The notes under the pieces were generated by a model. The model was not told the origin of the DNA and did not search any database. It was given only the letters and a program-made list of their open reading frames with translations. Below, piece by piece: positions 24,936-51,067 of a DNA stretch of 64,000 nt. The translations under genes and the position numbers were made by a program. The first letter of the stretch is position 1; each line of letters starts with the position of its first letter. Source of the DNA: an uncultured Gemmatimonadales bacterium (GTDB lineage: Bacteria; Gemmatimonadota; Gemmatimonadetes; Gemmatimonadales; GWC2-71-9); contig CAWJMT010000005.1 in NCBI GenBank assembly GCA_963844035.1, forward strand, positions 160,001 to 224,000, written 5' to 3'.

Positions 24936-25706
24936 GTGAATCGCGTGAAGGGCAAACTGGCGCTCGTGACGGGAGCGAGCTCGGGGATCGGCGCGGCGTG
25001 CGCGCGTCGTCTGGCCGCCGACGGCGCGCACCTGGTGCTGTGGGCGCGGCGGCGGGATCGCCTCACCGAGCTCGCCGCGGAGCTCGAGCGGGCGCACGGC
25101 ACCACGGTGCGGCTGGGAGCGGTGGACGTGCGCGAGCGCGCCGTGGTGAATCAGGCCGCGGCCGAGCTGGCCGCCGGCGGGCACGTTCCCGACATCCTCA
25201 TCAACAACGCAGGGCTGGCGGCGGGCCTGAACAAGCTGCACGAGGGCGACGTGGACGATTGGGATCGCATGATCGACACGAACCTGAAGGGCTTGCTGAA
25301 CGTGACGCGCGCCATCCTGCCGCACATGGTGGCGCAGCGGCGCGGCCACATCGTCAACATCGGCAGCACGGCCGGGCACATGTCGTATCCCAAGGGGAAC
25401 GTGTACAGCGCGACCAAGGCTGCGGTGCGCTCGCTGACCGACGGGATGAACCTGGACGTCGCGGGGACGCCGATCCGCGTGTCGAGCGTGGACCCCGGCT
25501 TTGTCGAGACGGAGTTTTCGGAGGTGCGGTTTCGCGGTGACGCGCAGCGGGCGAAGGCGGTGTACCACGGCTTCACGCCGCTCTCAGCGGCCGACGTCGC
25601 GGACGCGATCGCCTACGTCGTGAACCTTCCGGAGCATGTCAACATCATCGACCTGATCCTGGTGCCGACGGCCCAGCGGAACATCTACGTCGTAGATCGG
25701 GAATAG
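24936..25706 (+). CDS. SDR oxidoreductase (YdfG-like)
   Basis: TGASSGIG, NNAG, YSATK and PG.VETEFS motifs. Confidence 0.92.
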   Translation: MNRVKGKLALVTGASSGIGAACARRLAADGAHLVLWARRRDRLTELAAELERAHGTTVRLGAVDVRERAVVNQAAAELAAGGHVPDILINNAGLAAGLNKLHEGDVDDWDRMIDTNLKGLLNVTRAILPHMVAQRRGHIVNIGSTAGHMSYPKGNVYSATKAAVRSLTDGMNLDVAGTPIRVSSVDPGFVETEFSEVRFRGDAQRAKAVYHGFTPLSAADVADAIAYVVNLPEHVNIIDLILVPTAQRNIYVVDRE

Positions 25707-25763
25707 CCCCGCCCGTCAGGGCGGGCATGGCGACATCGATAGCCCCGCCGTGAGGGCGGGGCC
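25703..25763 (+). repeat. Two REP palindromes (G)ATAG-CCCCGCCC-GT(C/G)A-GGGCGGGG
   Basis: Copies at 25703-25726 and 25738-25761. Confidence 0.85.
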
Positions 25764-25788
25764 AGGGAATCAGGTCGGAGCGGTGGGG

Positions 25789-26227
25789 CTAGTCCGTCGC
25801 CCCATCCTCACGGATGGGGCGACCCGTTTGAGGGTGTCGGCCCTTCGGGCCTAGGTGGTGCGCCTCCTGGTTTCGGATGTACGCGATCAGATGCTCCTCC
25901 GAGAATCTCGACACCGAGAACGCGGAGTACCCTTGCTGCCAGGCAAACTGCCGCAGTCGCGGGAATGTCTCGTGGATCCAGCGCGATGAGTTGGCCTTGA
26001 GCGCGCTCACGAGCTGCGCGATGGACAGGTCGGCTGGGAGCGAGAGGTAGAGATGAACGTGGTCGCGGCATCCCGCCAGCGCAGATGAGCTTCGATCGCT
26101 TCCGTTGTGCCACCGCGCCGAAGTACCGGATACAGCCGATCCTGCCACTCCGGAGCGATCCAGGGCTGGCGCCGATACGTGCTCCACAGACGCAATGGAT
26201 GCGGACGCAGAGATAGGTGTGCGCCAC
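25789..26227 (-). mobile_element. tnpA: IS200-like/RAYT Y1 HUH transposase (about 3 frameshifts; possibly a pseudogene)
   Basis: Reconstructed HCVWST..R.P, DHVHL, KANSSRW, WQQGY.AFSVS and YIRNQEAHH; flanked by REPs. Confidence 0.88.
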
Positions 26228-26301
26228 GCGGACAACATTGATGGCGGTACGAGGCTCGACGCATCGTTTGGACGCCGGTCGGGTCAGAAAATTGCGAGAT
26301 C

Positions 26302-26328
26302 GATAGCCCCGCCCGTGAGGGCGGGGCC
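26302..26328 (+). repeat. REP palindrome, same family as 25703/25738
   Basis: GATAG-CCCCGCCC-GTGA-GGGCGGGG. Confidence 0.85.
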
Positions 26329-26358
26329 ACGCGAGGGACGAGGGTGGGAGAGCGGATC

Positions 26359-33677: not shown

Positions 33678-33761
33678 CCTTGGGCGGTTAGTCGGTCAGG
33701 CGGGCAGCCGGTGCGGCGCTTCCGGTTCTCCACTCAATTGGCGGTGAGCGGTGGCTGACTG

Positions 33762-34282
33762 ATGAAGCCGGCATTCATCACGCTTGCACTGTTCGCAACC
33801 GCGTTCGCCTCGACACTGACCGCACAGGTGGAGGAGGGGGATGCACGGAAGACCCTCGCCGGCCTGCGGGGCGTCTACGTCTCGGTCGTGCCGGTGGTGG
33901 AACAGGCCCCAAAGAACGCGGCTCGTGGCGGAGCAGATTCAGGCCGAGGTGGAGACGCAGGTGCGGCAGGCCGGCATTACGGTGCTCAAGAAGGACGACC
34001 TGCGTCGCACGCCCGGGATGCCGTACCTCTTTGTCCTGCCAATCGTCCAGCGCCCGGACTCCGCCGGCAAGCCGGTACCCGTACCGCGTCGAGGTCGAGG
34101 TCTTCCAGCTGGTGGTGCTCTCCCGGAACCCCGACGTGTTTGCCCTCGCCCGCACCTGGAATTCCAAGGGTGGTCTCGGCACGGCGGCGGAAGAGAATCT
34201 CGTCACGTCCATCAAGGACGCGGTGCGGACCATGACGGACCAATTCATCGCGGCGTACCTGGACGCGAATCCCAAGCACTAG
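33762..34282 (+). CDS. Hypothetical exported protein (frameshifted)
   Basis: Signal peptide, TLAGLRGVYV and C-terminal DQFIAAYLDANPK across frames. Confidence 0.65.
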
Positions 34283-34314
34283 CCGACCGAACCCGAACCT
34301 CACACAGGAGACGG

Positions 34315-35657
34315 ATGGCCACTCGAACCAATCTCCCCTGGGGTCGCTCGCTCGTACTCGCGGCGAGCCTTCTCGTGATCCTCGCACCACGAGTGACCGC
34401 CCAGGACGTGGCGGCCCAGACGCCGGCCGACACCAGCGCCGACACCACCGCCACTACCGACTCGGTTTATCAAACCAGCATCGCTGGGGAGTTTCGACCC
34501 GCCAAAGGGTTTCGACGTCGTCCGCACGAAGGTGGCCAGCCTGAACATCAGTTTCTACGGACTGTTCCGGTATGTGAATCAGCTCCCCGGGGATCAGGAC
34601 TTCATCGATCACCTGGGGGGCGTCCGCACCGTCAAGACGCGCAACGATCTGTACTGGCACCGCACGATGGTGTGGCTCACCGGGTTCTTTCACGTCCCCA
34701 GGTTTCGCTACAACATCACGATGTGGTCGCTGACGACGACGCAGCAGGCGCTGCTGTTCGGGAATCTCCAGTACACGTTCGCTCCCGCCCTTACCGTCGG
34801 TGTGGGAATGCTCCCCAATCTGACGATACGTTCGCTGCAGGGTTCCTGGCCGTTTTGGGCGGGCAGCGATCGGCAAATGGCGGAGGACTTCTTCCGCGGG
34901 GGATTCTCGTCCGGTGCCTACGTCACGGGTCAGCCAGTGCCACGCCTGTACTACACCGCCTCGGTCAACACCAATTTGAGCCAGCTCGGCGTGACCGCGT
35001 CCAACGACACGCGCGACCTCGCGTACAGTGCCAGCTTGAACTGGATGCCGACCACGGGTGAGTTCGGACCGCGCGGCGGACTCGGCGATCTCGAGTATCA
35101 CGAGCGTCTGGCCACTCGGTTCGGGATATCGGCGGGCCACAGTCGCGAGGGGCGCTACGCGAACGACAGCGTTCCGCCCAATGCCGCCCAGATCAAGCTC
35201 TCGGACGGCGTGAACCCATTCGACACGGGCGCGCTGGCCGCGGGGTGACGGTGCAGAAACTCGACTACGACGAGATGGCGATCGACGCGGGATTCAAGTA
35301 TCGCGGGTTTTCGTTTCAGGGCGAGTATTACCTCCGCCGGCTCTCGAACTTTCTGGCCACGGGCCCCGTGCCACTTCGTCCATCACCGATCACGGGTTCC
35401 AGGTGCAGGGCATGCACATGGTGGTGCCGAAGCGGCTGGGGGTTTACCTCACCTACGGTGTGGTGATGGACGAGTTTGAACGGCACCCCTGGGAGGTGTC
35501 GGGGGGAACGACCATCTACCCGAGCGGCACGCGGTCCTGGCGCTTGAATGTGCACGTCATCCGGGTCGAGCGGTGTCCGGCGTCTTCCACGTTCGGGTAC
35601 TACACGTCGGGTCAGTCCGGCACGACGATTTCCATCGGGACGGATATCCTGATGTGA
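34315..35657 (+). CDS. Probable outer-membrane porin-like protein (several frameshifts)
   Basis: Signal peptide; DAGFKYRGFSFQGEYY and aromatic beta-strand pattern. Confidence 0.7.
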
Positions 35658-35665
35658 GGTGCTTC

Positions 35666-36760
35666 ATGCGCGTTGTCTCAGGGCTCGTGTTGATCGGTCT
35701 CGCCGTGGCGCACCCCGGCGCCGCGCAGACCGCCGATTGCGATTTCAACGACTCGCATTTTCATCTCACCAACTACGTACAGGAAGGCCCGAGCGTGCGG
35801 GACTTCCTGAAGATCATGGGGAAGCGCGTCTGCCGGTCCACGCTGTTCGGAATCCCGCTCCAACAGGCGTGGGTGTATGGGAACTCCGGGGATTACGCGC
35901 CGACGTACTACCTCCAGACCGACGCGCCGCTCTACTATTACTCGTTCACGGACGCGGCGACCGCCATGGCCTACCGCTCGCTGTCGCCCGAGGAGCGCGC
36001 CCGGTTCGATCCGATGATCACGGGCTTCAATCCGGCGGACATGTACGCCGCGGATCACATCAAGCGGGTGCTCCGCACATTCCCGGGCGTGTTCGAAGGC
36101 ATCGGCGAGTTCACCATTCATAAGGAGTTCGTGTCCGGCAAGATCGCGGGCGGAGCCGCGAGCCTCCTCGACCCGGCGCTCGACCGGATTCTCGATCTTG
36201 CCGGTGCTTCCGGACTCGTCGTGCTGATTCACAACGACATGGACATGCCGTTCGCCAAACCCGGCACCGAACCGCTCTTTCTCCCTCAAATGAAGTCCCT
36301 GCTGCGGCGGCATCGCGACGCGACGATCATCTGGGCCCACATCGGCCTGGGACGCGTGGTGCATCCCACCGTGCCATCGGCATCGGTCCGCGCGGCCGAG
36401 CGCAACCCGACGTACGGCATGATCGTCGAGGGCATTCTCTCCGACTCGACGCTGCGCCACGTGTACTTCGACATCAGCTGGGATGAAGTCGCGAAGTATC
36501 TGCTCGCGAGCCCCGAGGTGACCCGCCGCTCAGCCGATCTGATCAACCGGTATCCCGACCGCATTCTGTTCGGCTCGGACGTGGTGGCGCCGCGCGATAC
36601 CAGCGCGTACTTCGCGGTCTTCAACGACTATGCCCCACTGTGGGCGCTGCTCACCCCCGAGGCGAGCGCGAAAGTCCGTAAGGGCAACTACGAGCGGCTG
36701 TTCGACGCCGCTCGCGAGCGCGTACGGGCGTACGAACGGAAGCAGGGCTGGTCAAAGTAG
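35666..36760 (+). CDS. Exported amidohydrolase-superfamily protein
   Basis: DSHFH, GIGE, IHND, WAH.G and FGSD motifs. Confidence 0.85.
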   Translation: MRVVSGLVLIGLAVAHPGAAQTADCDFNDSHFHLTNYVQEGPSVRDFLKIMGKRVCRSTLFGIPLQQAWVYGNSGDYAPTYYLQTDAPLYYYSFTDAATAMAYRSLSPEERARFDPMITGFNPADMYAADHIKRVLRTFPGVFEGIGEFTIHKEFVSGKIAGGAASLLDPALDRILDLAGASGLVVLIHNDMDMPFAKPGTEPLFLPQMKSLLRRHRDATIIWAHIGLGRVVHPTVPSASVRAAERNPTYGMIVEGILSDSTLRHVYFDISWDEVAKYLLASPEVTRRSADLINRYPDRILFGSDVVAPRDTSAYFAVFNDYAPLWALLTPEASAKVRKGNYERLFDAARERVRAYERKQGWSK

Positions 36761-36821
36761 GGGGACAGTAGGGAGTTGCCGGGGCAGGTTGAATTGCTAA
36801 CTTCCAGCCGCATTACTTCCT

Positions 36822-36894
36822 AGGTCCGTAGCTCAATTGGTAGAGCACCGGTCTCCAAAACCGGGGGTTGCAGGTTCGATTCCTGCCGGGCCTG
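36822..36894 (+). tRNA. tRNA-Trp(CCA)
   Basis: AGGTCCG/CGGGCCT; anticodon arm ccggt-ctCCAaa-accgg. Confidence 0.97.
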
Positions 36895-36895
36895 T

Positions 36896-37549
36896 TTGCA
36901 AAACGTCGCTCCGCGCACATGGGCTCACCTCGCTACGGCGGCCGTCGCTGCGTGTGTCATCCCCTCTACCGCACCAGCCCAGCCGGGGACCCCGGACTCG
37001 GTAGTGTACGTCCTCTCACCATCGAGCCGCTTCGAGGTAACGACCGGCAAGGGCGGTCTGCTCGGCTTCGCAGGTCACACGCACGTGATTCGCGCGCGGG
37101 CGTTCTCGGGGCGGGTCGTCTTTTACCCGCACAAGCCTGCCGCCTCCCGCGTAGAGATCGTGGTGCGCACGGACAGCCTCCAGGTCCTCACGCCTCCGGA
37201 CACGGCCGAGATCCGCAAGGTGACGGAGGCGATGCGCACTGAGGTGCTCGACGTGCAGCGCTATCCTGAGATCCGCTTCGTTTCGAAGACACTGACGGCC
37301 ACTGACGGTGGGTTTGTCATCGTCGGGGATCTGACCATGGCGGGCCGCACGCGGGAAGTGCGGGCGGAGGTGAAGGCGAATATCCACCCGGACAGTTTGC
37401 GGGCGACGACAACGTTCACCGTGAAACAGACCGACTTCGGAATCCGGCCGTTCCGCGGTGGCCCGGGCGGCACTGTCCGAGTCGCCGACCCGGTCGTGTT
37501 CGAGGTCGAGGCAGTGGCGGTCCTTGCGGACGGCGCGGCGGGACGATAA
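36896..37549 (+). CDS. YceI family protein
   Basis: LD..YPEIRF.S, GDLT..G.T and Q.DFGI.P motifs. Confidence 0.85.
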   Translation: MQNVAPRTWAHLATAAVAACVIPSTAPAQPGTPDSVVYVLSPSSRFEVTTGKGGLLGFAGHTHVIRARAFSGRVVFYPHKPAASRVEIVVRTDSLQVLTPPDTAEIRKVTEAMRTEVLDVQRYPEIRFVSKTLTATDGGFVIVGDLTMAGRTREVRAEVKANIHPDSLRATTTFTVKQTDFGIRPFRGGPGGTVRVADPVVFEVEAVAVLADGAAGR

Positions 37550-37608
37550 ATCCGGTCTCCCAATTGGACAGTTCGCCAGCTACCAGGCATTTCATCCAAG
37601 GAGGACGC

Positions 37609-38205
37609 ATGGGTGTCGCAGCGAGAATCTCCGTCGTGGCGCTGGCGGTCGCCGGCCTCTCACTCGGGGGGCGGACCGCGGCCGCGCAAGCGGCGTCGGC
37701 CGACGCGCAGATCGCGCAGGCCAAGGCGGCACTCGCCCAGTACCAGGACCCCATGGCTGCGGTGCGCGACGGCTACTTCTCGACGGTGGGGTGCATCGAG
37801 TTCCCGTCGGGGCACGGCGCGCACGGCGAGATGACGTTCAAGGCCGGCGGCATGGGCGTGCACTTCTTCAACTGGGCGACGATTGGCCCGACCATGGACC
37901 CCACGAAGCCGCAGGTGCTCATCTACGAGCCGGTCGCCGACAAACTGCAGCTCGTCGCCGCCGAATGGTTCGCTCCCGTGGAGCCTGGTGTGAAGGAGGC
38001 GCCCAAGATTTTCGGGCGCGCTCTCGAGGGTCCCATGGAAGGCCACGCGCCGATCATGGATCCGGGGATGCACCACTGGGATCTTCACGTCTGGCTGTGG
38101 AAGAACAACCCGAGCGGGATGTTCAGCCCGACCAATCCCGACCTGAAGTGTCCCAAGACCGGGTACTCCTACGTCGGAGAGCCGCCGAAGATGGTGACGC
38201 CGTAG
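37609..38205 (+). CDS. Exported His/Met-rich hypothetical protein
   Basis: Signal peptide; MGVHF, P.VLIYEP, HWDLHVWLW..NP.G.F..NP motifs. Confidence 0.75.
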   Translation: MGVAARISVVALAVAGLSLGGRTAAAQAASADAQIAQAKAALAQYQDPMAAVRDGYFSTVGCIEFPSGHGAHGEMTFKAGGMGVHFFNWATIGPTMDPTKPQVLIYEPVADKLQLVAAEWFAPVEPGVKEAPKIFGRALEGPMEGHAPIMDPGMHHWDLHVWLWKNNPSGMFSPTNPDLKCPKTGYSYVGEPPKMVTP

Positions 38206-38214
38206 CGAGGCTTG

Positions 38215-39564
38215 ATGGTGCGTTATGCCGCGCTCAGCATCCTGGCACTTGGCCTGGCGGGATGTGAAACCCCCATAGAGGCCAACGCACCGGACGCGAC
38301 CGTTCAGGTCGCGACCGTTCAGGTCACGGCCGCGACGGACACCGCGACCGCGCTCGGGAGCATCGTGCAGTTCAGCGCGCTCGTGAAGGACGCTGCGGGC
38401 AATATCCTTTCAGAAAAGACTGTGACGTGGAGCTCGACCGCTCCCGCGGTAGCAGTCGTGAATCCGACAAGCGGCCTGGCCACGACTGCGGCGAACGGCT
38501 CGACGAGCATCCGGGCCACGGTCGACGGCGTGACGGGGGCGCGCACCCTCACGGTGGAGCAGGAGGTGGCGGCGGTCACCGTCACGCCCGGCACGTCGAG
38601 TATGAATGCCGGCACCACGTGCCAGTTCACCGCGACGGCGAAGGACGGCAACGGGCACACGGTGGCCGGCGCCAAGTTTCTCTGGGTTTCCTCGAACACG
38701 AACATCGCCGTAGTCGATTCGACCGGCCTTGCCAGGGGCGTCGGCCGCGGAGGGGTCGTCATTACCGCCGCCGCCCAGGGTCAGCCGGGCAGCGCGCTGT
38801 TGAGCGTGGTGTTTCCCGCCGGCCGGCTCGTCGTGGCCAGTATGAGCGACAACGCCGTCTACCTGTACGATCCGATCACGCTGGCCCGCCTCTCGACATT
38901 CGCAGTGACGGCGCCCCTCTCGGCGGCGGTCGGACCGGATGGTCGCATCTACGCCGGCACCAACGGGGGCCAGGTCGTAGCGATCGACCCGGCAACCGGG
39001 GCGAGCAACGCCCTCGGCGCCACCATTCTTGCCGGTCCCATCTACGGCACCACGGTGAGCGCAGGCGGGGTGATCTACGCTACGGGGTACTCCATGCCCG
39101 ATGTGCGGACAATGGACCTGACCGGCGCGTCGCTCGGGAGCATCGCTTCGCCTGGCGGCACGAATCTGCGGGGCACCGCGTTCGGGGCGGACGGCAGCTT
39201 CTATCTGGCCACCCTGGCGGGCGGTCCGGTGCAACGCTGGCTCGCCGGCTTCGTGTACGACACGGCGTTCGGGGCGGCCGGCCTCACCGGCGCCTTCGGC
39301 GTCGCGACGCGGGCCAGCGGCGAAGTGATCGTGACCGACCAGAACGCGGGGGCCTACTTTCGCTTCACCAGCGCGGGCGTCTTCCAGGACAGCGTGACCG
39401 TCAACTGCTCCGGACAGATTCGCAACCTGGCGGTGGATCTGGACGACAACCTGTGGATCGGCTGCTACGGGTCCAACGCGGTCGTGAAGTTCGACGCCTC
39501 GAACCACGAGGTTGCCCGGTTCACCGTAGCCTCCCCTTCGGGAGTCGCGTTCGAGCGGCCGTAG
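38215..39564 (+). CDS. Lipoprotein with two Big_2 Ig-like domains and a beta-propeller
   Basis: LAGC lipobox; WSS...VA.V..G repeats; GPDG.IY and D.DDNLWI blades. Confidence 0.8.
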   Translation: MVRYAALSILALGLAGCETPIEANAPDATVQVATVQVTAATDTATALGSIVQFSALVKDAAGNILSEKTVTWSSTAPAVAVVNPTSGLATTAANGSTSIRATVDGVTGARTLTVEQEVAAVTVTPGTSSMNAGTTCQFTATAKDGNGHTVAGAKFLWVSSNTNIAVVDSTGLARGVGRGGVVITAAAQGQPGSALLSVVFPAGRLVVASMSDNAVYLYDPITLARLSTFAVTAPLSAAVGPDGRIYAGTNGGQVVAIDPATGASNALGATILAGPIYGTTVSAGGVIYATGYSMPDVRTMDLTGASLGSIASPGGTNLRGTAFGADGSFYLATLAGGPVQRWLAGFVYDTAFGAAGLTGAFGVATRASGEVIVTDQNAGAYFRFTSAGVFQDSVTVNCSGQIRNLAVDLDDNLWIGCYGSNAVVKFDASNHEVARFTVASPSGVAFERP

Positions 39565-39610
39565 TTCTCGACGCGGCTCGCTCCGAGATCGTCACCTCCA
39601 AGGGCATCAC

Positions 39611-40081
39611 ATGATCGAGATCGCAGACCTGCATCACGTCAGTCTCGCCGTCACGAATCTCACCCGGTCCAAAGCGTTCTACGGCGACGTGCTCGGACTG
39701 AAAGAGATCGAGCGCCCGGCATTCGAGTTCGCGGGGGCGTGGTACGCCGTGGGCGATCGCCAGCTGCACCTGATCGTGCATGACAAGCCGACGCTGCGGA
39801 CGCGCGGGATCGATTCGCACGACGTGCATTTCGCGCTGCGGGTGAAGAGCTATCAGGAGACGGTGGCCTACCTCAAGTCGCTCGGGTATTCGAGTGACAC
39901 GCGGGATGACGTCAAGCGGCTGCGGGAAAATCAATGGGGCAAGGCGGGCTTCCCCCAGGTGTTCATTCTCGATCCCGACCGGCACGTGATCGAGCTGAAC
40001 GCGGACCGGGTGGACGAGGGGACGACGCGCAACACGAAGGCGACGACGCACAGCGGCCGCGGGTTCGATTCCGCGCCCTGA
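39611..40081 (+). CDS. VOC/glyoxalase family protein (stop codon supplied by the repeat)
   Basis: LHHVSL, FYGDVLGL, HFAL and DPD.HVIEL motifs. Confidence 0.9.
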   Translation: MIEIADLHHVSLAVTNLTRSKAFYGDVLGLKEIERPAFEFAGAWYAVGDRQLHLIVHDKPTLRTRGIDSHDVHFALRVKSYQETVAYLKSLGYSSDTRDDVKRLRENQWGKAGFPQVFILDPDRHVIELNADRVDEGTTRNTKATTHSGRGFDSAP

Positions 40082-40152
40082 GAGGGCGCGCTCGGCTGGG
40101 GGTGCGCCCTTACAGGGCGCACTGGCGCCGAGCCCGGGCTCTCAGCCCGGGG
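40072..40152 (+). repeat. Composite REP repeat R1
   Basis: GCGCCCTGAGAGGGCGC + GTGCGCCCTTACAGGGCGCAC + CCCGGGCTCTCAGCCCGGG. Confidence 0.9.
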
Positions 40153-40252
40153 AATCCGATCCCGAGCGACACGTCGATCGAGCTGAACGCGGAGCGGGTG
40201 GACGAGCCAGCCCCGAGCGCGTAGCAACCCACCCTTTTACGGAGTCGTATTC

Positions 40253-40334
40253 CGCGCCCTGAGAGGGCGCGCTCGGCCGGGGGTGCGCCCTTACAGGGCG
40301 CACGTGGCGCCGAGCCCGGGCTCTCAGCCCGGGG
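40253..40334 (+). repeat. Composite REP repeat R2
   Basis: Near-identical to R1. Confidence 0.9.
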
Positions 40335-40739
40335 AGTCTCGAAGCAATGTCCGACTCCTCCAAAGCAAGCTCGGGATGCCTCGTTGATTGGGTGCGCACG
40401 TAGCGAATCGCCTGCTTGAGATCCCGGACGCCCAGCGAGCGCAAGTCGTATCCATCGGCCCAGCGCAACTTCGCACGCGGCTGGATCCGGTCGCGGTTCG
40501 CGACGCGCGCGCTTGCGCCTTTGAGACCTTGAAGGAGGCGGGGGATATCGATTCGCGGAGGGAAGCTCGACGACCATGTGTACGTGGTTCCGCACGATGC
40601 CGATTTCAATCACCTTCGCGCCGTGGCGGGAGGCGATCGCGGGCAGCATGCGACGCAGGAACGCGGCAGTAGCTGTCTGGATGAGCGGCAGTCGCCGCTC
40701 GGTGGTCCACGTCACCAGCGCGTAGAGACGGAAGGGCAT
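40335..40739 (-). mobile_element. tnpA: IS200-like/RAYT Y1 HUH transposase (frameshift ~40557; frame runs on into R2)
   Basis: VTWTT.RR.PLI, NHVHM, LKGAS, WADGY..RS and YVRTQ..H motifs. Confidence 0.85.
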
Positions 40740-40805
40740 CGGACCAGTGTGTCGCGATGATGCATCCACACCAAACCATTCGATTGCGAGATGGGATCGG
40801 AGTTA

Positions 40806-40887
40806 CGCGCCCTGAGAGGGCGCGCTCGGCCCGGGGGTGCGCCCTTACAGGGCGCACGAGCGCCGAGCCCGGGCTCTTAGCCCGGGG
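40806..40887 (+). repeat. Composite REP repeat R3
   Basis: Near-identical to R1. Confidence 0.9.
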
Positions 40888-40972
40888 AATCCGATACCAG
40901 CTGCACGTGATCGAGCTGAACGATGGGTGCACGGACGAGTGGGGGACGACGCACGGCTGTCGTGGGTGATCA

Positions 40973-41053
40973 CGCGCCCTGAGAGGGCGCGCTCGGCCCG
41001 TGTGCGCCCTTACAGGGCGCACAATGCGCCGAGCCCGGGCTCTTAGCCCGGGG
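40973..41053 (+). repeat. Composite REP repeat R4
   Basis: Near-identical to R1. Confidence 0.9.
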
Positions 41054-41094
41054 AATCCCGCGTATACTTAGGCAGCCACGAACGTCGAGGCTCC

Positions 41095-41881
41095 GTGCGG
41101 AACCGTTGGATCGCAATCGCGCTACTCGCTGTAGTGCTCGCGTGTAAGTCGAACGACGCCACGGCCCCGGAAGTGTGTGCCGCCACCAACGGCGCGCCCG
41201 CACCGGTACCGGGGCCCGCCCATGCGCCGTTCTCGGTCCTCGTCTTCTCCCGCACCACCGGCTATCGCCATGCCTCGATCCCCAGCGGCATCACCGCGAT
41301 TCAGGTGCTCGGTGCGCTCAACAACTTCACCGTCGAGGCGACCGAGGACCCCACCGCGTTCAGCGACGCGAACCTGGCGCGCTTCGGCGCGGTCGTGTTC
41401 CTCAGCACGACGGGCGAGGTGTTGGACGATGCGCAGCAGGCGGCGTTCGAGCGCTACATCCAGGCCGGACACGGGTCTGGTGGGCGTGCACTCGGCATCC
41501 GACACGGAGTATGGCTGGAGCTGGTACCACACCCTGCTTGGCGTCACGTTCGCGTCTCATCCCCCGATGCAGCAGGCCAGCGTGGTCGTCGTGGACACGG
41601 GCCAGCGGTCCACGCGCTCCCTCCCCGATCCCTGGGTGCGCACCGATGAGTGGTACAACTACACGGCGTTGCCGGTGAGCGTAACGGTGTTAGTCCGGGT
41701 GGACGAATCGACGTATTCCGGCGGAACGATGGGAATCCACATCCGATCAGCTGGCAGCGCGAATATGACGGTGGCCGGGCGTGGTACACGGCGATGGGAC
41801 ACTCGTCGTGCAGCTTCAGTGAGCGGCCGTTCCTCGACCACCTGCTGGGTGGTATCGAGTGGGCGGTGGGAGTCTCCCTGA
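41095..41881 (+). CDS. ThuA-domain lipoprotein (frameshifted; end approximate)
   Basis: VLVFSRTTGYRHASI, VFLSTTG, DEWYN and GRAWYTAMGH motifs. Confidence 0.88.
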
Positions 41882-41893
41882 GCGACGGCGCGA

Positions 41894-42253
41894 CTACCGG
41901 CGCCCGAGGTACTTCTCATCCCAGGCGACCGGATAGCGTCCCTCGCATCGTTCGCAGCTCAATTCGTCGGGCGATTCCTCGAGCGATATGCGATTGCTGC
42001 AATTGGGACAGACGCCGTATTTGTCGCCCCAGGTCTCCGGCAGCCGCATCGCGTCGCGGGGACGCGGCACGACGGTCCAGCGGAGCGGTCGCCGGTCGAC
42101 TACCTCGATGTAGGAACGCGGCACGCTGACGGTCCTCCACTGCACGTCGAGGATGATTTCGTGGCGCTCGAACTCCGTGACGCGATACCACGCGCCGCGG
42201 CGGAGCGGGTACGGGCCTTCGGATTTCAGGCGAGCCCAGTGGAGTGCATGCAT
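41894..42253 (-). CDS. Small protein with a C-terminal zinc ribbon
   Basis: CPNC...CERC. Confidence 0.7.
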   Translation of the reverse strand: MHALHWARLKSEGPYPLRRGAWYRVTEFERHEIILDVQWRTVSVPRSYIEVVDRRPLRWTVVPRPRDAMRLPETWGDKYGVCPNCSNRISLEESPDELSCERCEGRYPVAWDEKYLGRR

Positions 42254-42323
42254 GGATCGGGAGGTTAGACACTACAACGTAAGTCGCTTTTCGACAATGC
42301 GTTAGAAGCGACACGGCGCCGGC

Positions 42324-43850
42324 ATGTTGGTCGTTCGCCCGGCGAATTGCATATTGTTCCCCCCTATGACGAGCAGCGTGAAGGACTTCTGGCTGTTTCG
42401 GATCGTCCACCAGGACACGGGTAAACCCGCCCAAGGGGTTCCCGTGACGGTGCTCGACGGGTCCGGTAATGCGGCCGGATACTGGGTCAGCGAGCCTGAC
42501 GGCACGGTGCGGATTCCCCGTCGCGACGGCTCGCGGCTCAGGCTGCGGGTGGGGCTCCGCAACGAAGAGCCGATCGAGCTGAACACGGCCACCCTGGGAG
42601 ATGGCCCGACCGACCTCGCGGCGCCGAGCTGGGTGCCGTTCACCTCGTCGCCGGCGAACGCGGCGAGCGCGAGCCGATCGGCGGCTCCCGCACCGCATGC
42701 CGCCGAGTCGCGCGAGGTGCCGGGGCACGTCCTCTACTTCCAGCGCCTCGCCATGTTCGGTGAGCCGGCGTCGCCGTCGCCCGCCGGACCTCAGGATAAC
42801 GTCGCGGACTTCTTTGCGACGCCGACCGATCCGACCGCTGTGCTGCGCTACGGTGTGGTGATCGAAGTCGAGCAGCTGTGGCAGTCCACCGGAGTGCAGT
42901 GGGGGGAGCTGCTCTACAGCGTCTCGCTCACGCCAGGGGACGAAGCGCGGCTCACCGTGCTCGACGGCCGCTGGCGCCGCGACATCGAGGGCCGGGAGCG
43001 CCCGCTGCAAATTCTCGCCCGGATGGTGGGGACCTCCATGCTGGGCGACCTGGTGACGGCGCTCCGGCCCGAGCTGCAGGTCGAGTCGTGCACCCTCTCC
43101 GACCCGAATCTCGAGGCGGCAGCCACCGGCACGATGCACATGATCCGCGAGCGTACCGAGCGGATGAGCCAGGCGTTGCGCCGCCGTCCGTTGGGCGTGG
43201 TGGACGGCACGCAGGAGACCTCCGACCACGCCGCGATCCGCACCGTGCGCAACACGGCGCGGGACCGGGTGGTCACGTTCCACTTTTTCGAGCCGCTCGA
43301 GCACTTCCGGGTGGTGGTACGCAGTCCGCGGATCCGTCCGGTGATCTTCGTCCCGTTCCGGCTCCCCAACGTGGCGACGCCGGACGTGGTGCAGCGGTTC
43401 GGGTACATCTTCCGGCGCACGCTGCTCGACCGCGGCATGGTGCCGGATCTCGAGCGGTTGCTGAACGGCGAAAGCGCGGGGAGCGGGAGAAACCGGCTGC
43501 TCGAGCACGTCGAGGCGAATCTGCTGTACTACTCGACCGCGATCATCGCGGCCGGCGACCACGCGGCGCGCCATTCGGCACTCTCGAAGGTGCGCGACGC
43601 GTCGGGTGTGCCGCTGACCGACCTGGTCGAGAACACGGTGCTGGGGCGGGTGGGGAGCGCGATCGCCATGCCGCTGCGCTCGCTGGCGCAGCTGCCGCGG
43701 GAGTGGCGTGAGGCGCTCGCGGCCTACACGACGCGTCCCCCGCGGCTCACCGAGGAATTCAGCGTCAACATCCCCCACCCGGGCGTGTGGGTCACCGCTC
43801 AACCGCACGCGCCGATGCAAAGCTCGGCGACGGAGAGCGCCGCAGGCTGA
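42324..43850 (+). CDS. Hypothetical protein, 508 aa
   Basis: Intact ORF with typical codon bias, divergent from 42253. Confidence 0.75.
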   Translation: MLVVRPANCILFPPMTSSVKDFWLFRIVHQDTGKPAQGVPVTVLDGSGNAAGYWVSEPDGTVRIPRRDGSRLRLRVGLRNEEPIELNTATLGDGPTDLAAPSWVPFTSSPANAASASRSAAPAPHAAESREVPGHVLYFQRLAMFGEPASPSPAGPQDNVADFFATPTDPTAVLRYGVVIEVEQLWQSTGVQWGELLYSVSLTPGDEARLTVLDGRWRRDIEGRERPLQILARMVGTSMLGDLVTALRPELQVESCTLSDPNLEAAATGTMHMIRERTERMSQALRRRPLGVVDGTQETSDHAAIRTVRNTARDRVVTFHFFEPLEHFRVVVRSPRIRPVIFVPFRLPNVATPDVVQRFGYIFRRTLLDRGMVPDLERLLNGESAGSGRNRLLEHVEANLLYYSTAIIAAGDHAARHSALSKVRDASGVPLTDLVENTVLGRVGSAIAMPLRSLAQLPREWREALAAYTTRPPRLTEEFSVNIPHPGVWVTAQPHAPMQSSATESAAG

Positions 43851-43865
43851 TCTCCCTCGGGCGGG

Positions 43866-45082
43866 TCAGGTACGGATGCGGTTCCGCCCGTCTTCCTTCG
43901 CACGATACAGCGCCTGATCGGCGGCCCGGATCACCTGATCCGGCAGGCCGTGGCGACTGTTCCGCTCGGCCACGCCGATGCTGACGGTGATCGCCGCCTG
44001 GCGGCGCTTGCCTTTGCTCTTCTCGCGCTTGCGCGCGACACGGATGCGGCCGCGGATCGTGAAGGCGGTGTCCGCGATCGCTTCGCGCACGGCTTCGAGG
44101 TGGGGCAGGGATTCGTCCACCGACTTGCCCGGGAACAGGATCGAGAACTCCTCCCCGCCGTAGCGGTACGCGCTTGCCCGCCGCCCTCGACGTGGGCCAG
44201 CTTCGCCGCCACCATCTTCAATACGTGATCGCCCACGTCGTGTCCGTACTCGTCGTTGAAGCGCTTGAAGTGATCCACGTCCACCATCGCGATCGCATAC
44301 TGGCCGCCGAGGCGCTGCATCGCTTCGGTCAGAGCACGGCGGGTCGGCAGCTGGGTGAGCCCGTCCTGATAGGCCAGGAGGTAGGAGGCTTCAATGACCG
44401 AGACGACGAGCACCAACCCGGCGGTGCCGAGGTAGATCGCCGCCCCGGGGCCGGGGCGGTACGCGGTGAGGGCGAGAAACGCCGCCAGGATGGCCCAGAG
44501 GAATCCGCGCAGTGTGGCGTTGGTCTCGAACAGCAGCGGCGTGACCACGGCGCCCAGGGCGAGCGCGAACGCGAACAGCGCCGGCTGCCGCAGCGGCGCC
44601 CACGCCAGCAGCTTCGCCGGGAGCATCGGGTGCGCCAGCAGCGCCGCGGTCGCGGCCGGCGCGGTGCGGCTGAACATCACCACCAGGGTCACCTGCACCA
44701 CGATGGCGCCGAGGCGCAGCAGGCCGATCGGCGTGAGCGTGCCGCGGTCGGGGAGCAGCGCGAGCGCGGCGAGGTTCAGGGGCAGGAGCACCGCGGTGGC
44801 GCGGATAATCACCTGGACCGTCGATCCGCGACCGGGCGAGCCGAGGGCGAGCGGTGGCGAGGGCCAGCACGACCAGGGCGAGCAGCAGGCGGTTGCGCTC
44901 GAACCGCCACGCCAGCAGCGCGCCCACCACGAACACGGCGTAGGGATAGAAGCGCGCGAAGGCGGGCAGCCGTCGCGCAGCGCATCGAGCTGCAGCACGA
45001 CCACGGCCGCGAGCAGCAGCACCCCGTCGGGTGCTACCAGCGACAGCACTCGTTTCCACCAGCTGGCTTTCGCGCGTGCCAT
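43866..45082 (-). CDS. Membrane diguanylate cyclase (frameshifted)
   Basis: DGLTQL..RR, DVDHFK.FND.YGH..GD, RYGGEEF (shifted frame) and ADQALY.AK.GRN motifs. Confidence 0.92.
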
Positions 45083-45219
45083 GGGTTCGCGGTTGCGGTG
45101 GCCATAAGGGTACGCAAGACGGCGTGACAGGTCAACACAGGGGAGGCGGGCACGCGGGTTGCGTGCTCCCGCGGCGGGTGGTGATATTCAGCCCGCCGGC
45201 TCCTCTCCGGCCGAGCTAC

Positions 45220-45292
45220 GGCGGTATCGTCTAGGGGACTAGGACGGAGCCCTCTCAAGGCTCAAACACGGGTTCGAATCCCGTTACCGCTA
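45220..45292 (+). tRNA. tRNA-Glu(CTC)
   Basis: GGCGGTA/TACCGCT; anticodon arm gagcc-ctCTCaa-ggctc. Confidence 0.95.
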
Positions 45293-45312
45293 CTGTCAGC
45301 GCTCGCGTTTCC

Positions 45313-45384
45313 GCCCCCATCGTCTAACGGTTAGGACACCACTCTTTCAAGGTGGGAACAGGGGTTCGATTCCCCTTGGGGGCA
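45313..45384 (+). tRNA. tRNA-Glu(TTC)
   Basis: GCCCCCA/TGGGGGC; anticodon arm ccact-ctTTCaa-ggtgg. Confidence 0.95.
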
Positions 45385-45390
45385 CTAAGA

Positions 45391-45423
45391 AAGAGGGAAG
45401 AGGGAAGGGGGAAGGGGGAAGGG
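45391..45423. repeat. GGGAAG(A/G) heptamer tandem
   Basis: aagagggaagagggaagggggaagggggaaggg. Confidence 0.75.
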
Positions 45424-45430
45424 TAGGAGG

Positions 45431-45823
45431 GTGCCGCCGTCGGCTGTCCAGGTCGAACAGATTGCGATCATCGTGCACGACGTGGACCGGGCTGTGACGT
45501 TCTACCGCGACGTGCTCGGCCTGCCGTTCCTGTTTCAGGTCCCGAACATGGCGTTCTTCCAGTGCGGTGAAGTGCGTCTCATGCTCGGGATCCCGTCAGC
45601 GCCCGAGTTCGATCATCCCTCCTCTATCATCTACTTCAGGGTTGCCGACATCGAGGCAGCGCACCAGGCGCTGGTGACCCGCGGCGCCAGCTTTCGCAGC
45701 GCGCCGCATCTGGTGCACCGTGCTGCGGATCACGAGCTGTGGATGGCGGAATTCCAGGATCCCGACCGCAACAACCTCGCGCTGATGAGCCGCAAGGCGC
45801 CGGGATCGCCAAGGGTTGCCTAA
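45431..45823 (+). CDS. VOC/glyoxalase family protein
   Basis: QIAI.V.D, FYRDVLGL and F.DPD.N.L motifs. Confidence 0.9.
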   Translation: MPPSAVQVEQIAIIVHDVDRAVTFYRDVLGLPFLFQVPNMAFFQCGEVRLMLGIPSAPEFDHPSSIIYFRVADIEAAHQALVTRGASFRSAPHLVHRAADHELWMAEFQDPDRNNLALMSRKAPGSPRVA

Positions 45824-45852
45824 CGTTTTGTGGGTAGCGATGTTTCCGCCGC

Positions 45853-45925
45853 GCGCCGATAGCTCAATTGGTAGAGCAAATGACTCTTAATCATTAGGTT
45901 CTCGGTTCGATTCCGAGTCGGCGCA
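45853..45925 (+). tRNA. tRNA-Lys(CTT)
   Basis: GCGCCGA/TCGGCGC; anticodon arm aatga-ctCTTaa-tcatt. Confidence 0.97.
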
Positions 45926-46007
45926 TGACGTCGTTCCAACCCCCCGGGCCTCCCACTCGGGGGACCTCCTGCTGCCAAATTGCCTGGGAGCATCGCAGCG
46001 TCCTCCT

Positions 46008-46360
46008 CTAATAGCCCTGCGGCGCTTCCACTAACGCCCTGGCGAACAAGGCTAGAACGAAGATGCCGAGCGCGAGCCCGATCGTTCTTCCAGCATCGAC
46101 CTGGTGGATCGCGACCTGTATGACGTCCGAGACCGCGACCTTAGATGGCGTTCCGTGGAGGACCCCCGCTACGCTGTCGCCCGCAGCGATTCGGGGCTCA
46201 AGGAGATCCATCGCGAGCCGTCGGCCAGGGTCAGGCGCACGGCAGTGGGGTGCTTGGTGGAGATCATCTGCGACGGGCTGACCCCCTTCTCGACGTGCCA
46301 CGTGGTGCACGCGGCGAGATACCAGAGGAGGAGCGCACAGGCGATCGGTCGGCGCAGCAT
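46008..46360 (-). CDS. Hypothetical lipoprotein (frameshifted)
   Basis: LAAC lipobox; C-terminal TM segment in a second frame. Confidence 0.55.
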
Positions 46361-46557
46361 GGGTGACTCCCTTGTGGGTTCGCCAGCAATAGACGCTCGC
46401 GCTCTCAAGCGAGAATCAAGGAAGCCAGACCGCGCGACTCACCCCATCGGGCGATCTCCCTACTCCACCCCTCCACCGAACGAGGCATGCCTATTGAGCC
46501 CCGCCCCTTACATGTTGCAGCAGGCCGGTCGTACGCCGTCGTCCACTGGAGGTTTCC

Positions 46558-47273
46558 GTGAAACGCTTCTGGGTATTCGTACTCTTGATCGTGGTTGCCT
46601 GTACCAGACACGTCGGGCCCGTCCACCGTGCCCGTGACAATCGTTGTCACGAACGACCTGATCGACCCCGTCACCATCAATGTGAATGGACATAGCCGTA
46701 GGGATTACTGCAGCGAGCGCTACTCAGCAGGTGACCGTCAACGTTGCCGGGAGCCTCACGGTTTCCTTCGATCTGAACCGTCCCACGACCACCGGGGGAA
46801 CTCCGCTTGGTGAGCAGATGTTCGGCGACTTTGAGACAATCTCGAACCCCAGCGGCACCTACACGTTCACCGTGGACAACTTTGTAGGCACGCAAGAATA
46901 CTTCTCCCCGTTGATTTCAAACTCCGGCGCATATCCAATCCTCATGGCAGTCAACTGGGGTCTCGTTTCAGAAAACTGGTGCAATTGCACCGCTCCTTCG
47001 GGTGGGTTGGACATCAACATCGGATACTATCGCTTGTTCGCCAACACCGAAGTCAGAGGTTATGGGACCGTGAGCGGCTATGGAAACGGCACCTATGCCT
47101 TCTGGAACGTTTCAACCTTTGGTCCCGACGTAGAGGTCGGAACCGGCGTCGTGCTGCTCGCCAATAGCTCGAACATCCTGTCGCCGCCGATCGGGGTGGC
47201 GGGAGTTGCCGGAACGGTCACAAGAGGGACAGGTCGCCCAACATTGGGTCGGGCACTGACGAATACGCCGTAA
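46558..47273 (+). CDS. Hypothetical lipoprotein, lower GC (frameshifted)
   Basis: GGAGG then GTG-KRFWVFVLLIVVAC; continues in ORF 46686-47273. Confidence 0.55.
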
Positions 47274-47438
47274 GCCGCATTCTTGGAGCGGACCCGGGCA
47301 CCTAGCCCGGGGGAATGGCGCGTTCCGAGTGGGCCGCGTTCCCTGCTTCATGAAGACCCCTTCCTTGACAGACTGCAGACCGCCAGCAGCTTAGCCCCTC
47401 ATCGACAACGAGCACCCTCCAGCCCGGGAGATCCAACC

Positions 47439-47892
47439 ATGCGTCGCACGTTCGCTTCTCCACTCATTGGCATGGCGTTGGTCGCAGTCGTCTGTGCTCC
47501 CGTGGGAGCCCAGGCGAAGGGGAAGTCGCTTACGTCCGGCTCGGGGGCAAGACGGCCATCACCGCCGTGGTCAACGAATTTGTTTCCGGGTGGGCGCCGA
47601 CAACCGCATCAACAGGTTCTTCGCGGCCACGGTGGCCGACACCGCTCGGTTGGCGGCCCTCAAGGGAAAGCTCGTGGATCAGATTTGCCAGGCGACCGGC
47701 GACCACTGCCACTACATGGGGAAGGACATGAAGACCGCCCATGCAGGCATGGGAATCACGCACGCCGACTTCGCCGCGCTGGTCGAGGATCTGTCGGGCG
47801 CGCTGGACAGTTACAATGTGGCGCCGGCGGACAAGGCCGAGCTTCTCGGCGCGCTCGCACCAATGGAAGAGGACATCGTCGAGGGCACCTGA
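47439..47892 (+). CDS. Group I truncated hemoglobin with signal peptide (frameshifted)
   Basis: D.RI..FF, LVDQIC..TG, Y.GKDMK.AH.GMGIT.ADF motifs. Confidence 0.88.
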
Positions 47893-48129
47893 CAGCCCGG
47901 GAACCCCTCGGCCGAGTGGGCGCCCTGGTGGACGACCCCCGGCCTGACCTGTAGCTTGTCGGGTCTCTTCCAATTCGGCCCATCAATTGACGGATCGTGG
48001 CACCGCACGACCTACAGTCTGACGATCTCGACCCCGCACGCGGAGTCCTGACTGGCGTCCTCCTGGGCCTCGGGCTGTGGGCGCTGCTGATCGCCACCTG
48101 TTTCGCGGTGAGAAGGGGCTAGCCCCGCA

Positions 48130-49309
<1,180 letters not shown>

Positions 49310-49333
49310 GGCTACCAAGCGAAGGATTCGACG

Positions 49334-51067
<1,734 letters not shown>

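Follow-up and report, generated by a model that had tools for sequence, protein, structure and literature searches.

An apparent BIME-type rearrangement at the end of a VOC gene next to a REPtron-like repeat family in Gemmatimonadales

The window, the whole stretch of 64,000 nucleotides of a contig from an uncultured Gemmatimonadales soil bacterium to which all positions refer, contains a VOC/glyoxalase-family gene followed by four composite repeats (R1 to R4), which flank a Y1 transposase gene (tnpA) in pairs. A ThuA-like gene begins at 41095, past R4. The features and the evidence for each are as follows.

39611..40081, plus strand: VOC/glyoxalase-family gene (156 aa) with a derived 21-residue tail reading into the TGA of R1 (ORF, Pfam, homologues)
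39970..40018, plus strand: S0, the 3' coding segment copied in S1 and S3 (alignment)
39988..40005, plus strand: 18-nt segment identical to 40176-40193 and putative crossover window of a 188-bp unit (alignment)
40019..40071, plus strand: derived tail and linker (type B), akin to the S3 tail (26 nt, 81%; alignment)
40072..40155, plus strand: R1, composite repeat with both outer hairpins CCGAG-footed (repeat comparison, folding)
40157..40252, plus strand: S1, a mutated left part, then the native end ERVDEPAPSA* (stop 40222-40224) and a native-type linker (alignment, homologues)
40253..40337, plus strand: R2, left repeat of the repeat-tnpA-repeat unit (repeat comparison, locus survey)
40352..40739, minus strand: Y1/HUH transposase of the IS200-side clade (D/NHVH, WAxGY, Y---Q) in two frames, split near 40560-40570 (PF01797 in both halves)
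40806..40890, plus strand: R3, right repeat of the repeat-tnpA-repeat unit (repeat comparison, locus survey)
40892..40972, plus strand: S3, a diverged gene-end copy with the junction and one substitution of the S1 left part and the tail of S0 (alignment)
40973..41056, plus strand: R4, then an ancestral-type right flank toward the ThuA-like gene (repeat comparison)

The composite repeats (n = 4, each ~84 bp, starting at 40072, 40253, 40806 and 40973) lie in direct orientation and match one another at 76-81 of 83-84 columns. Each is predicted to fold into an outer stem enclosing three hairpins (z = -5.8, 0/200 shuffles equally stable) and, read on both strands, consists of two REPs, the first of them inverted, on either side of a central hairpin, with a CCGAG foot on each outer hairpin pointing towards the centre. 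Alignment and folding thereby confirmed the original prediction of four direct repeats of three palindromes each, two per side of a HUH/Y1 transposase. The assembly (3.47 Mb, 84% complete) holds 10 full repeats and one partial; three of the full copies and the partial one lie on C21 (1-27436), a syntenic sister-strain contig of the same assembly (86-91% identity to window 33700-51000) that shows, for several repeat events, the site with and without the insertion. The repeat gave no Rfam match at gathering level, and no sigma-70 promoter or terminator consensus was found. No listed sequencing run contained half of the stretch, and no RNA run containing it was listed. In four sequencing runs just repeat-sized or short pieces matched, none across the array, which has no bearing either way.

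The VOC Pfam domain spans residues 7-129 of the protein, and the tails considered here fall past its end. The stop codon is the TGA within R1, as first proposed and as borne out by the ORF. Two further copies of the S0 segment (39970-40018) were found in the array, one in S1 (40157-40206, 92% over 50 nt) and a more diverged one in S3 (40903-40952, 78% over 50 nt). Local alignment scores of 78 for S1 and 49 for S3 lie above those of every random 501-nt stretch of the window (highest scores 31 among 1936 stretches for S1 and 29 among 1929 for S3), which upholds the claim that the R1-R2 and R3-R4 segments are copies of the VOC 3' end. The reading frame of S1 is IELNAERVDEPAPSA*, following one extra base, and S3 likewise closes with its own stop codon. 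The alignment of the window to C21 has 32 non-triplet gaps in 5,053 nt; given this indel rate, the extra base in S1 and the tnpA frameshift were left without a biological reading. Frequent single-base indels between the two contigs also split genes, the ThuA-like and GGDEF genes among them, within window 34000-51000, with sequencing error likely in one or both. Across 200 surveyed loci, VOC-like DNA beside the repeat was limited to the window and L045/L132. The segment is therefore host-derived, as predicted for the spacers, and the alternative that it forms part of the element was rejected.

We used 86 VOC homologues to assess which gene end is native. Most (69/86) stop 5-6 residues past an IELN-type motif, and the +2 position is E in 76/86 and the D of the window's gene in 0/86. 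Three homologues carry an EPAPSA end (ERVDEPAPSA in P0094 and P0098, ERADEPAPSA in P0002), and an EPAPNP end (ERVDEPAPNP) was found in P0004, P0005, P0095, P0096 and at L045; other ends are ERAEG, EQLEG or ERVD. In P0003, the VOC protein of another strain, an EGT-type tail continues into the repeat. The VOC gene of L045 is 89.6% identical overall to that of the window and is followed by one repeat behind a native-type end, with a ThuA-like gene next, and the repeat is absent at the VOC site of C21. As the tail of S1 equals the end of these close homologues, the present 21-residue tail of the window's gene is derived, and S1 holds the native gene end of the clade. This agrees with the earlier suggestion that the 40158-40224 copy may be the ancestral gene end. 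The new VOC tail is probably without function and its effect on the glyoxalase is probably small, and no sign of selection or of programmed switching or variation of VOC tails was seen. The proposal that the repeats and spacers form a working set of alternative C-termini was not sustained, given that the tails lie past the domain and that so many homologues stop shortly after the motif.

We assessed the wider distribution of the element with repeat pattern scans, which yielded 122 stretches from metagenomes and 48 from genomes; nearly all of the genome stretches carry Gemmatimonadales or Gemmatimonadetes in their titles. Homologues of tnpA occurred in 45/301 family genomes (E <= 1e-25). CCGAG hairpins lay <=300 nt from tnpA at 27/30 loci, and their density was far higher near the gene (91 in 17.6 kb) than farther away (11 in 47.2 kb); the hairpin stems vary between lineages. 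The repeat-tnpA-repeat unit was found in at least 10 neighbourhoods of Gemmatimonadales-like genomes. Among the 32 tnpA loci with enough flank there were 15 left-flank and 10 right-flank clusters, with no fixed partner gene, which suggests that the unit is mobile as a whole. Plasmids gave only 4 distant IS200 matches. At one locus (L109:947-2168) a repeat-tnpA-repeat-tnpA-repeat arrangement occurs in tandem, the transposase unit itself being duplicated. As for VOC, the TGA of the first hairpin ends a long ORF at 9/59 de-duplicated solitary repeats (L002-L209), some of which may be spurious GC-rich ORFs.

Duplication of flanking DNA was not confined to the VOC locus. In a survey of spacers that omitted 18 locus ids (16 same-place duplicates, 2 arrays off edge), 7/29 tnpA-free spacers, at 4/18 loci, matched their upstream flank, a count obtained at a strict threshold that is itself inflated by homologous loci. 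The corresponding figure for spacers holding tnpA was 0/19, and one of 27 spacers matched the downstream flank. Two of the four positive loci belong to the window's own assembly, and at C4a and L037 a different palindromic repeat forms part of the match; duplicates of 20-24 nt at C21a and L184 fell just below threshold. On the question originally raised, whether inter-repeat DNA elsewhere also copies the flanking gene, flank duplication does recur at other loci, and most short spacers there show no match to flanking genes (22 of 29 below threshold). Spacers elsewhere are mostly short non-coding linkers recurring within a locus. The repeat family often forms tandem units whose linkers are specific to the locus and identical within it, each unit carrying two inverted REPs as in BIME and REPIN clusters.

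Several other sites carry duplicated or additional DNA beside the repeats. On the minus strand of L178:440-5045, and also in L177, a repeat terminates each of four paralogues of ~300 aa that lie in tandem and are 64-74% identical in DNA; the two that were scanned both have a FIMAH domain. An 817-aa protein lies upstream and the tnpA array downstream, giving a cassette-like look. At G000:C21:8900-13260 (L027), two tandem ~1.9-kb paralogues occupy about 4 kb between two repeats, an exact 20-nt copy of the 3' end of the upstream gene precedes the second repeat, and the cargo is absent at window 39564. Window 47280-47340 is a degenerate half-repeat. At the orthologous site, C21 carries an additional segment of about 2 kb bordered by one half-repeat and one full repeat, and ~35 nt of right flank are duplicated. 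Two repeats at G000:C4:408984-410300 lie 976 bp apart and have ~64 nt of upstream flank in common, another palindrome included; by eye, a tRNA-Val between them appears partly duplicated. Long target-site duplication was rejected as a general rule, with 2/59 de-duplicated solitary repeats (of 110) scoring >=30 against a null 99th percentile of 32, one of the two being another palindrome. Locus-specific pairing of left and right flanks was not supported: over 101 copies left after de-duplication of 169 the value was -7.0 kcal/mol, and permuted flanks gave -6.73 ± 0.17 kcal/mol, although window R1 and R3 ranked high. A CRISPR-like memory array would have unique, foreign-derived spacers of regular length; the spacers here share homology with the adjacent gene or among themselves and range from 30 to over 4000 nt.

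The transposase itself was compared with known Y1 classes. The window's tnpA, a single copy in the assembly with like composite direct repeats on both sides, is 72-79% identical to P0001, an intact 132-aa protein from a same-genus genome that also lies within a repeat-tnpA-repeat unit. Members of the family are about 130 aa long with the motifs D/NHVH, WAxGY and Y---Q--[RH]H, and the HUH and catalytic tyrosine core is present (H52, H54 and Y113 invariant in 22/22). In the classification of Quentin 2018 (PMC6006769), as its motif descriptions give it, class 1 is marked by Y---Q, class 2 (RAYT) by Y---NP, and class 3 by Y----Q together with a CnGA foot. All 22 members have Y---Q in place of the Y---NP of class 2, and the GT[AG]G-footed high-copy REPs of that class are replaced by CCGAG feet and 10 full copies. 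P0001 scored below cut-off against both the RAYT model NF047646 (29.3 bits, cut-off 80) and the IS200 model NF033573 (40.8 bits, cut-off 55). Against solved structures, the family profile gave E-values of 1e-13 to 1e-17 for IS200/IS605 transposases, the only structures with meaningful scores, and matched no TnpA_REP entry (PDB 4ER8) at E <= 10. Like IS200/IS605 subclass 1.1 the family has Y---Q and a short protein; the small subterminal hairpins and many near-identical copies of that subclass were not found. Like class 3 it has the 5' CnGA foot on the flanking hairpins; it lacks Y----Q and the 155-aa core, and no Y1 protein was found for reference in 79 loci matching the class-3 REP pattern. 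By these sequence features the transposase falls outside RAYT class 2 and is best described as a class-1-type enzyme with class-3-type feet and apparently REPtron-like behaviour. The label RAYT, used in the original prediction, therefore does not apply in the strict sense, because of the Y---Q motif, the sub-cut-off scores and the nearer match to IS200/IS605 structures, although the action appears REPtron-like.

Two other Y1 genes were seen in the assembly. A second member of the family (43-45% identical) at G000:C23:11300-12160 has a different CCGAG-footed composite repeat on each side. At window 25700-26330 (minus strand; PF01797 at 25867-26082) lies another Y1 transposase with subclass-1.2-like motifs (DHVH, WQQGY, YIRNQEAHH), beside which another, unlike palindrome occurs three times on its flanks; subclass 1.2 is listed without REPs.

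The reading we favour, with moderate confidence, is that a REPtron-like element duplicated a repeat together with ~100 bp of flank and that a 188-bp unit was then re-inserted into the VOC 3' end. It retains the part of the original prediction that proposed REP-directed capture and amplification of host coding DNA, in that the spacers are VOC-derived and flank duplication recurs, and drops the set of alternative C-termini. In the order of events that we infer, a single repeat would first have stood directly behind the VOC gene, as at L045. A cut-and-join may then have fused the right edge of the repeat to a gene-internal site, giving gene-S-R-S'-R and capturing ~100 bp of flank (the last 50 coding bases of VOC plus linker), most likely through a Y1 enzyme acting on single-stranded DNA. 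The tnpA unit would next have entered at a repeat, with S' decaying into S3. Finally, a circle of S' + R, or unequal exchange, would have crossed over in the common 18 nt (39988-40005), leaving gene-S/S'-R1-S'/S-R2-tnpA-R3-S'-R4, the VOC tail replaced and the native end displaced into S1.

The sequences at the junctions are consistent with these steps in several respects. Homology between the repeat edge and the gene-internal junction is near zero, which fits a nuclease cut-and-join. S0 and S1 are mosaics in opposite senses. Three changes fall within the first ~20 nt of S1, and its next 39 nt are identical to L045, although the two VOC genes agree at only 89.6% overall; in S0 the left part resembles the gene and the right part is derived. 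Moreover, S1 and S3 have the repeat junction and one substitution in common, and S0 and S3 the tail. The mosaic is carried by few sites, one of them perhaps a sequencing indel, and a whole-unit comparison was tied, the permuted insert and R1+S0 each having 149 matches to R3+S3. The reading is further favoured by the native end lying in S1, by the CCGAG hairpins close to tnpA, by the upstream-flank copies elsewhere and by the four L178 paralogues ending at repeats; against it also stand the many short spacers elsewhere that match no flanking gene and the frameshift of the window's tnpA as assembled. E. coli TnpA_REP has been reported to cut at sites distant from the REP and to join strands in vitro (PMC3333891), and guide-directed choice of site has been described (PMC8266576). 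By analogy with this cleavage and strand joining, the Y1 enzyme of the VOC locus most likely performed the cut-and-join.

The strongest competitor, which we consider possible yet distinctly less probable, is a BIME-type tandem duplication in place, from gene-S-R to gene-S0-R1-S1-R2, in which no unit ever entered the gene, the gene tail drifted, and S3 is a later S0/S1 recombinant placed at R3. The repeats themselves speak for it: R1 and R2 are the most similar pair (81/83, compared with 78/83 for R1 and R3 and 76/84 for R1 and R4), and this counts against the circle, which predicts that R1 resembles R3 and R4. Hypervariable linkers are also in its favour (37/56 between the S1 and L045 tails), as is the frequency of tandem units with identical locus-specific linkers both here and in the REPIN clusters described in PMC3116915. 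However, duplication in place requires that the coding copy shed its stop and almost its entire tail identity and that ERVDEPAPSA* stayed unchanged in the non-coding copy, the opposite of the expected asymmetry.

A more ambitious reading, which we regard as improbable, is that this IS200-side Y1 family uses the 84-bp cloverleaf repeats as att-like sites, excising and re-integrating circles of host DNA plus repeat. If true, the family would act across Gemmatimonadales as an integron-like editor driven by an HUH enzyme, exchanging gene ends (VOC) and building paralogue arrays (L178). Slightly less probable again is a programmed cassette system in which the Y1 enzyme stores or swaps C-termini or whole genes at att-like repeats to the benefit of the host. 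The apparent gene-end swap at VOC, the EGT-type tail of P0003 running into a repeat, the four L178 paralogues each ending at a repeat, and the 4-kb cargo of C21 with its 20-nt gene-end duplicate are all compatible with such a system. Nevertheless, the tails lie outside the VOC domain and are absent from most homologues, S3 has degenerated, the tnpA unit keeps no constant partner gene (32 loci form 10-15 neighbourhood clusters), and other spacers are mostly short and non-coding. A chimera of strains in an error-rich metagenome assembly is very improbable: the bin does contain the sister-strain contig C21 (86-91% identical), single-base indels are numerous and none of the read pieces spans the array, but the copies are not identical, having diverged by 8% and 22%, two diverged forms of the repeat-to-gene junction are present, independent records match the S1 tail, and C21, with no repeat at its VOC site, cannot be the donor.

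The re-insertion we favour bears on how REP and BIME sequences amplify and pick up host DNA in the cell, for which models still come chiefly from in vitro work. At the VOC locus the donor still stands next to both the native end that was displaced and a copy that has decayed, and relatives give the ancestral state, so that the predicted junction and 18-nt crossover window are testable; the intact P0001 and its cognate repeat are suited to biochemistry. A literature search, with subscription journals mostly outside its scope, returned no account of the repeat family, nor of any gene end replaced by a REP unit. The feature is real and amounts to a BIME-type rearrangement by a seemingly undescribed REPtron-like family, with an unusually legible gene-end replacement. 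It is a clear snapshot of a known kind of repeat amplification and no proven diversification system.

Among known systems, the closest in organisation is the E. coli REPtron/BIME (TnpA_REP; Ton-Hoang 2012, PMC3333891), described there as a Y1/HUH gene bordered by REP doublets of variable number, with tandem amplification, variable linkers and BIME units able to sequester flanking genes or gene fragments. The Gemmatimonadales family differs in its Y---Q motif, its CCGAG foot (GTAG in E. coli), the central hairpin between the REPs and a repeat with only 10 full copies in the assembly. Furthermore, the E. coli REPtron is seemingly immobile as a unit in that account, whereas the repeat-tnpA-repeat unit occupies its several Gemmatimonadales neighbourhoods. 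REP units in tandem with flanking DNA have been described before (PMC3116915, PMC3733652, PMC2817692). The REPIN clusters of P. fluorescens SBW25 (PMC3116915) and the REP clusters with flank (PMC3733652) are, as described, similar tandem repeat-plus-flank units, but the flank at the VOC locus extends into coding DNA and the gene end is apparently replaced. TnpA_REP-driven diversification of lanthipeptide genes has been proposed and later qualified by its authors (10.1101/2020.03.09.984088), and further context is given by PMC5581495, 10.1101/2021.07.10.451892 and 10.1101/2024.07.17.603846.

On the enzyme side, the family resembles TnpA_Y1 class 3 (PMC6006769) in its CnGA/CCGAG foot, NHVH and W[TA] motifs and REP-like flanks; it has Y---Q and about 130 aa where the class is described with Y----Q and a 155-aa core, and its perfect hairpins are joined into an 84-bp composite. 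It resembles subclass 1.2 of the same classification, and IS200 Group 3, which is RAYT-like (Bertels 2017, PMC5581495), in its short core, its Y---Q--[RH]H end and its single tnpA copy in the genome. Judged by the motif descriptions, it is set apart from subclass 1.2 (WQ, listed without REPs) by WA and cognate hairpin repeats. Class 3 has been placed between insertion sequences and the REPtron (PMC6006769), and the combination seen here of an IS200-side enzyme, REP-doublet repeats and apparent unit mobility similarly suggests a state between an insertion sequence and a domesticated REPtron.
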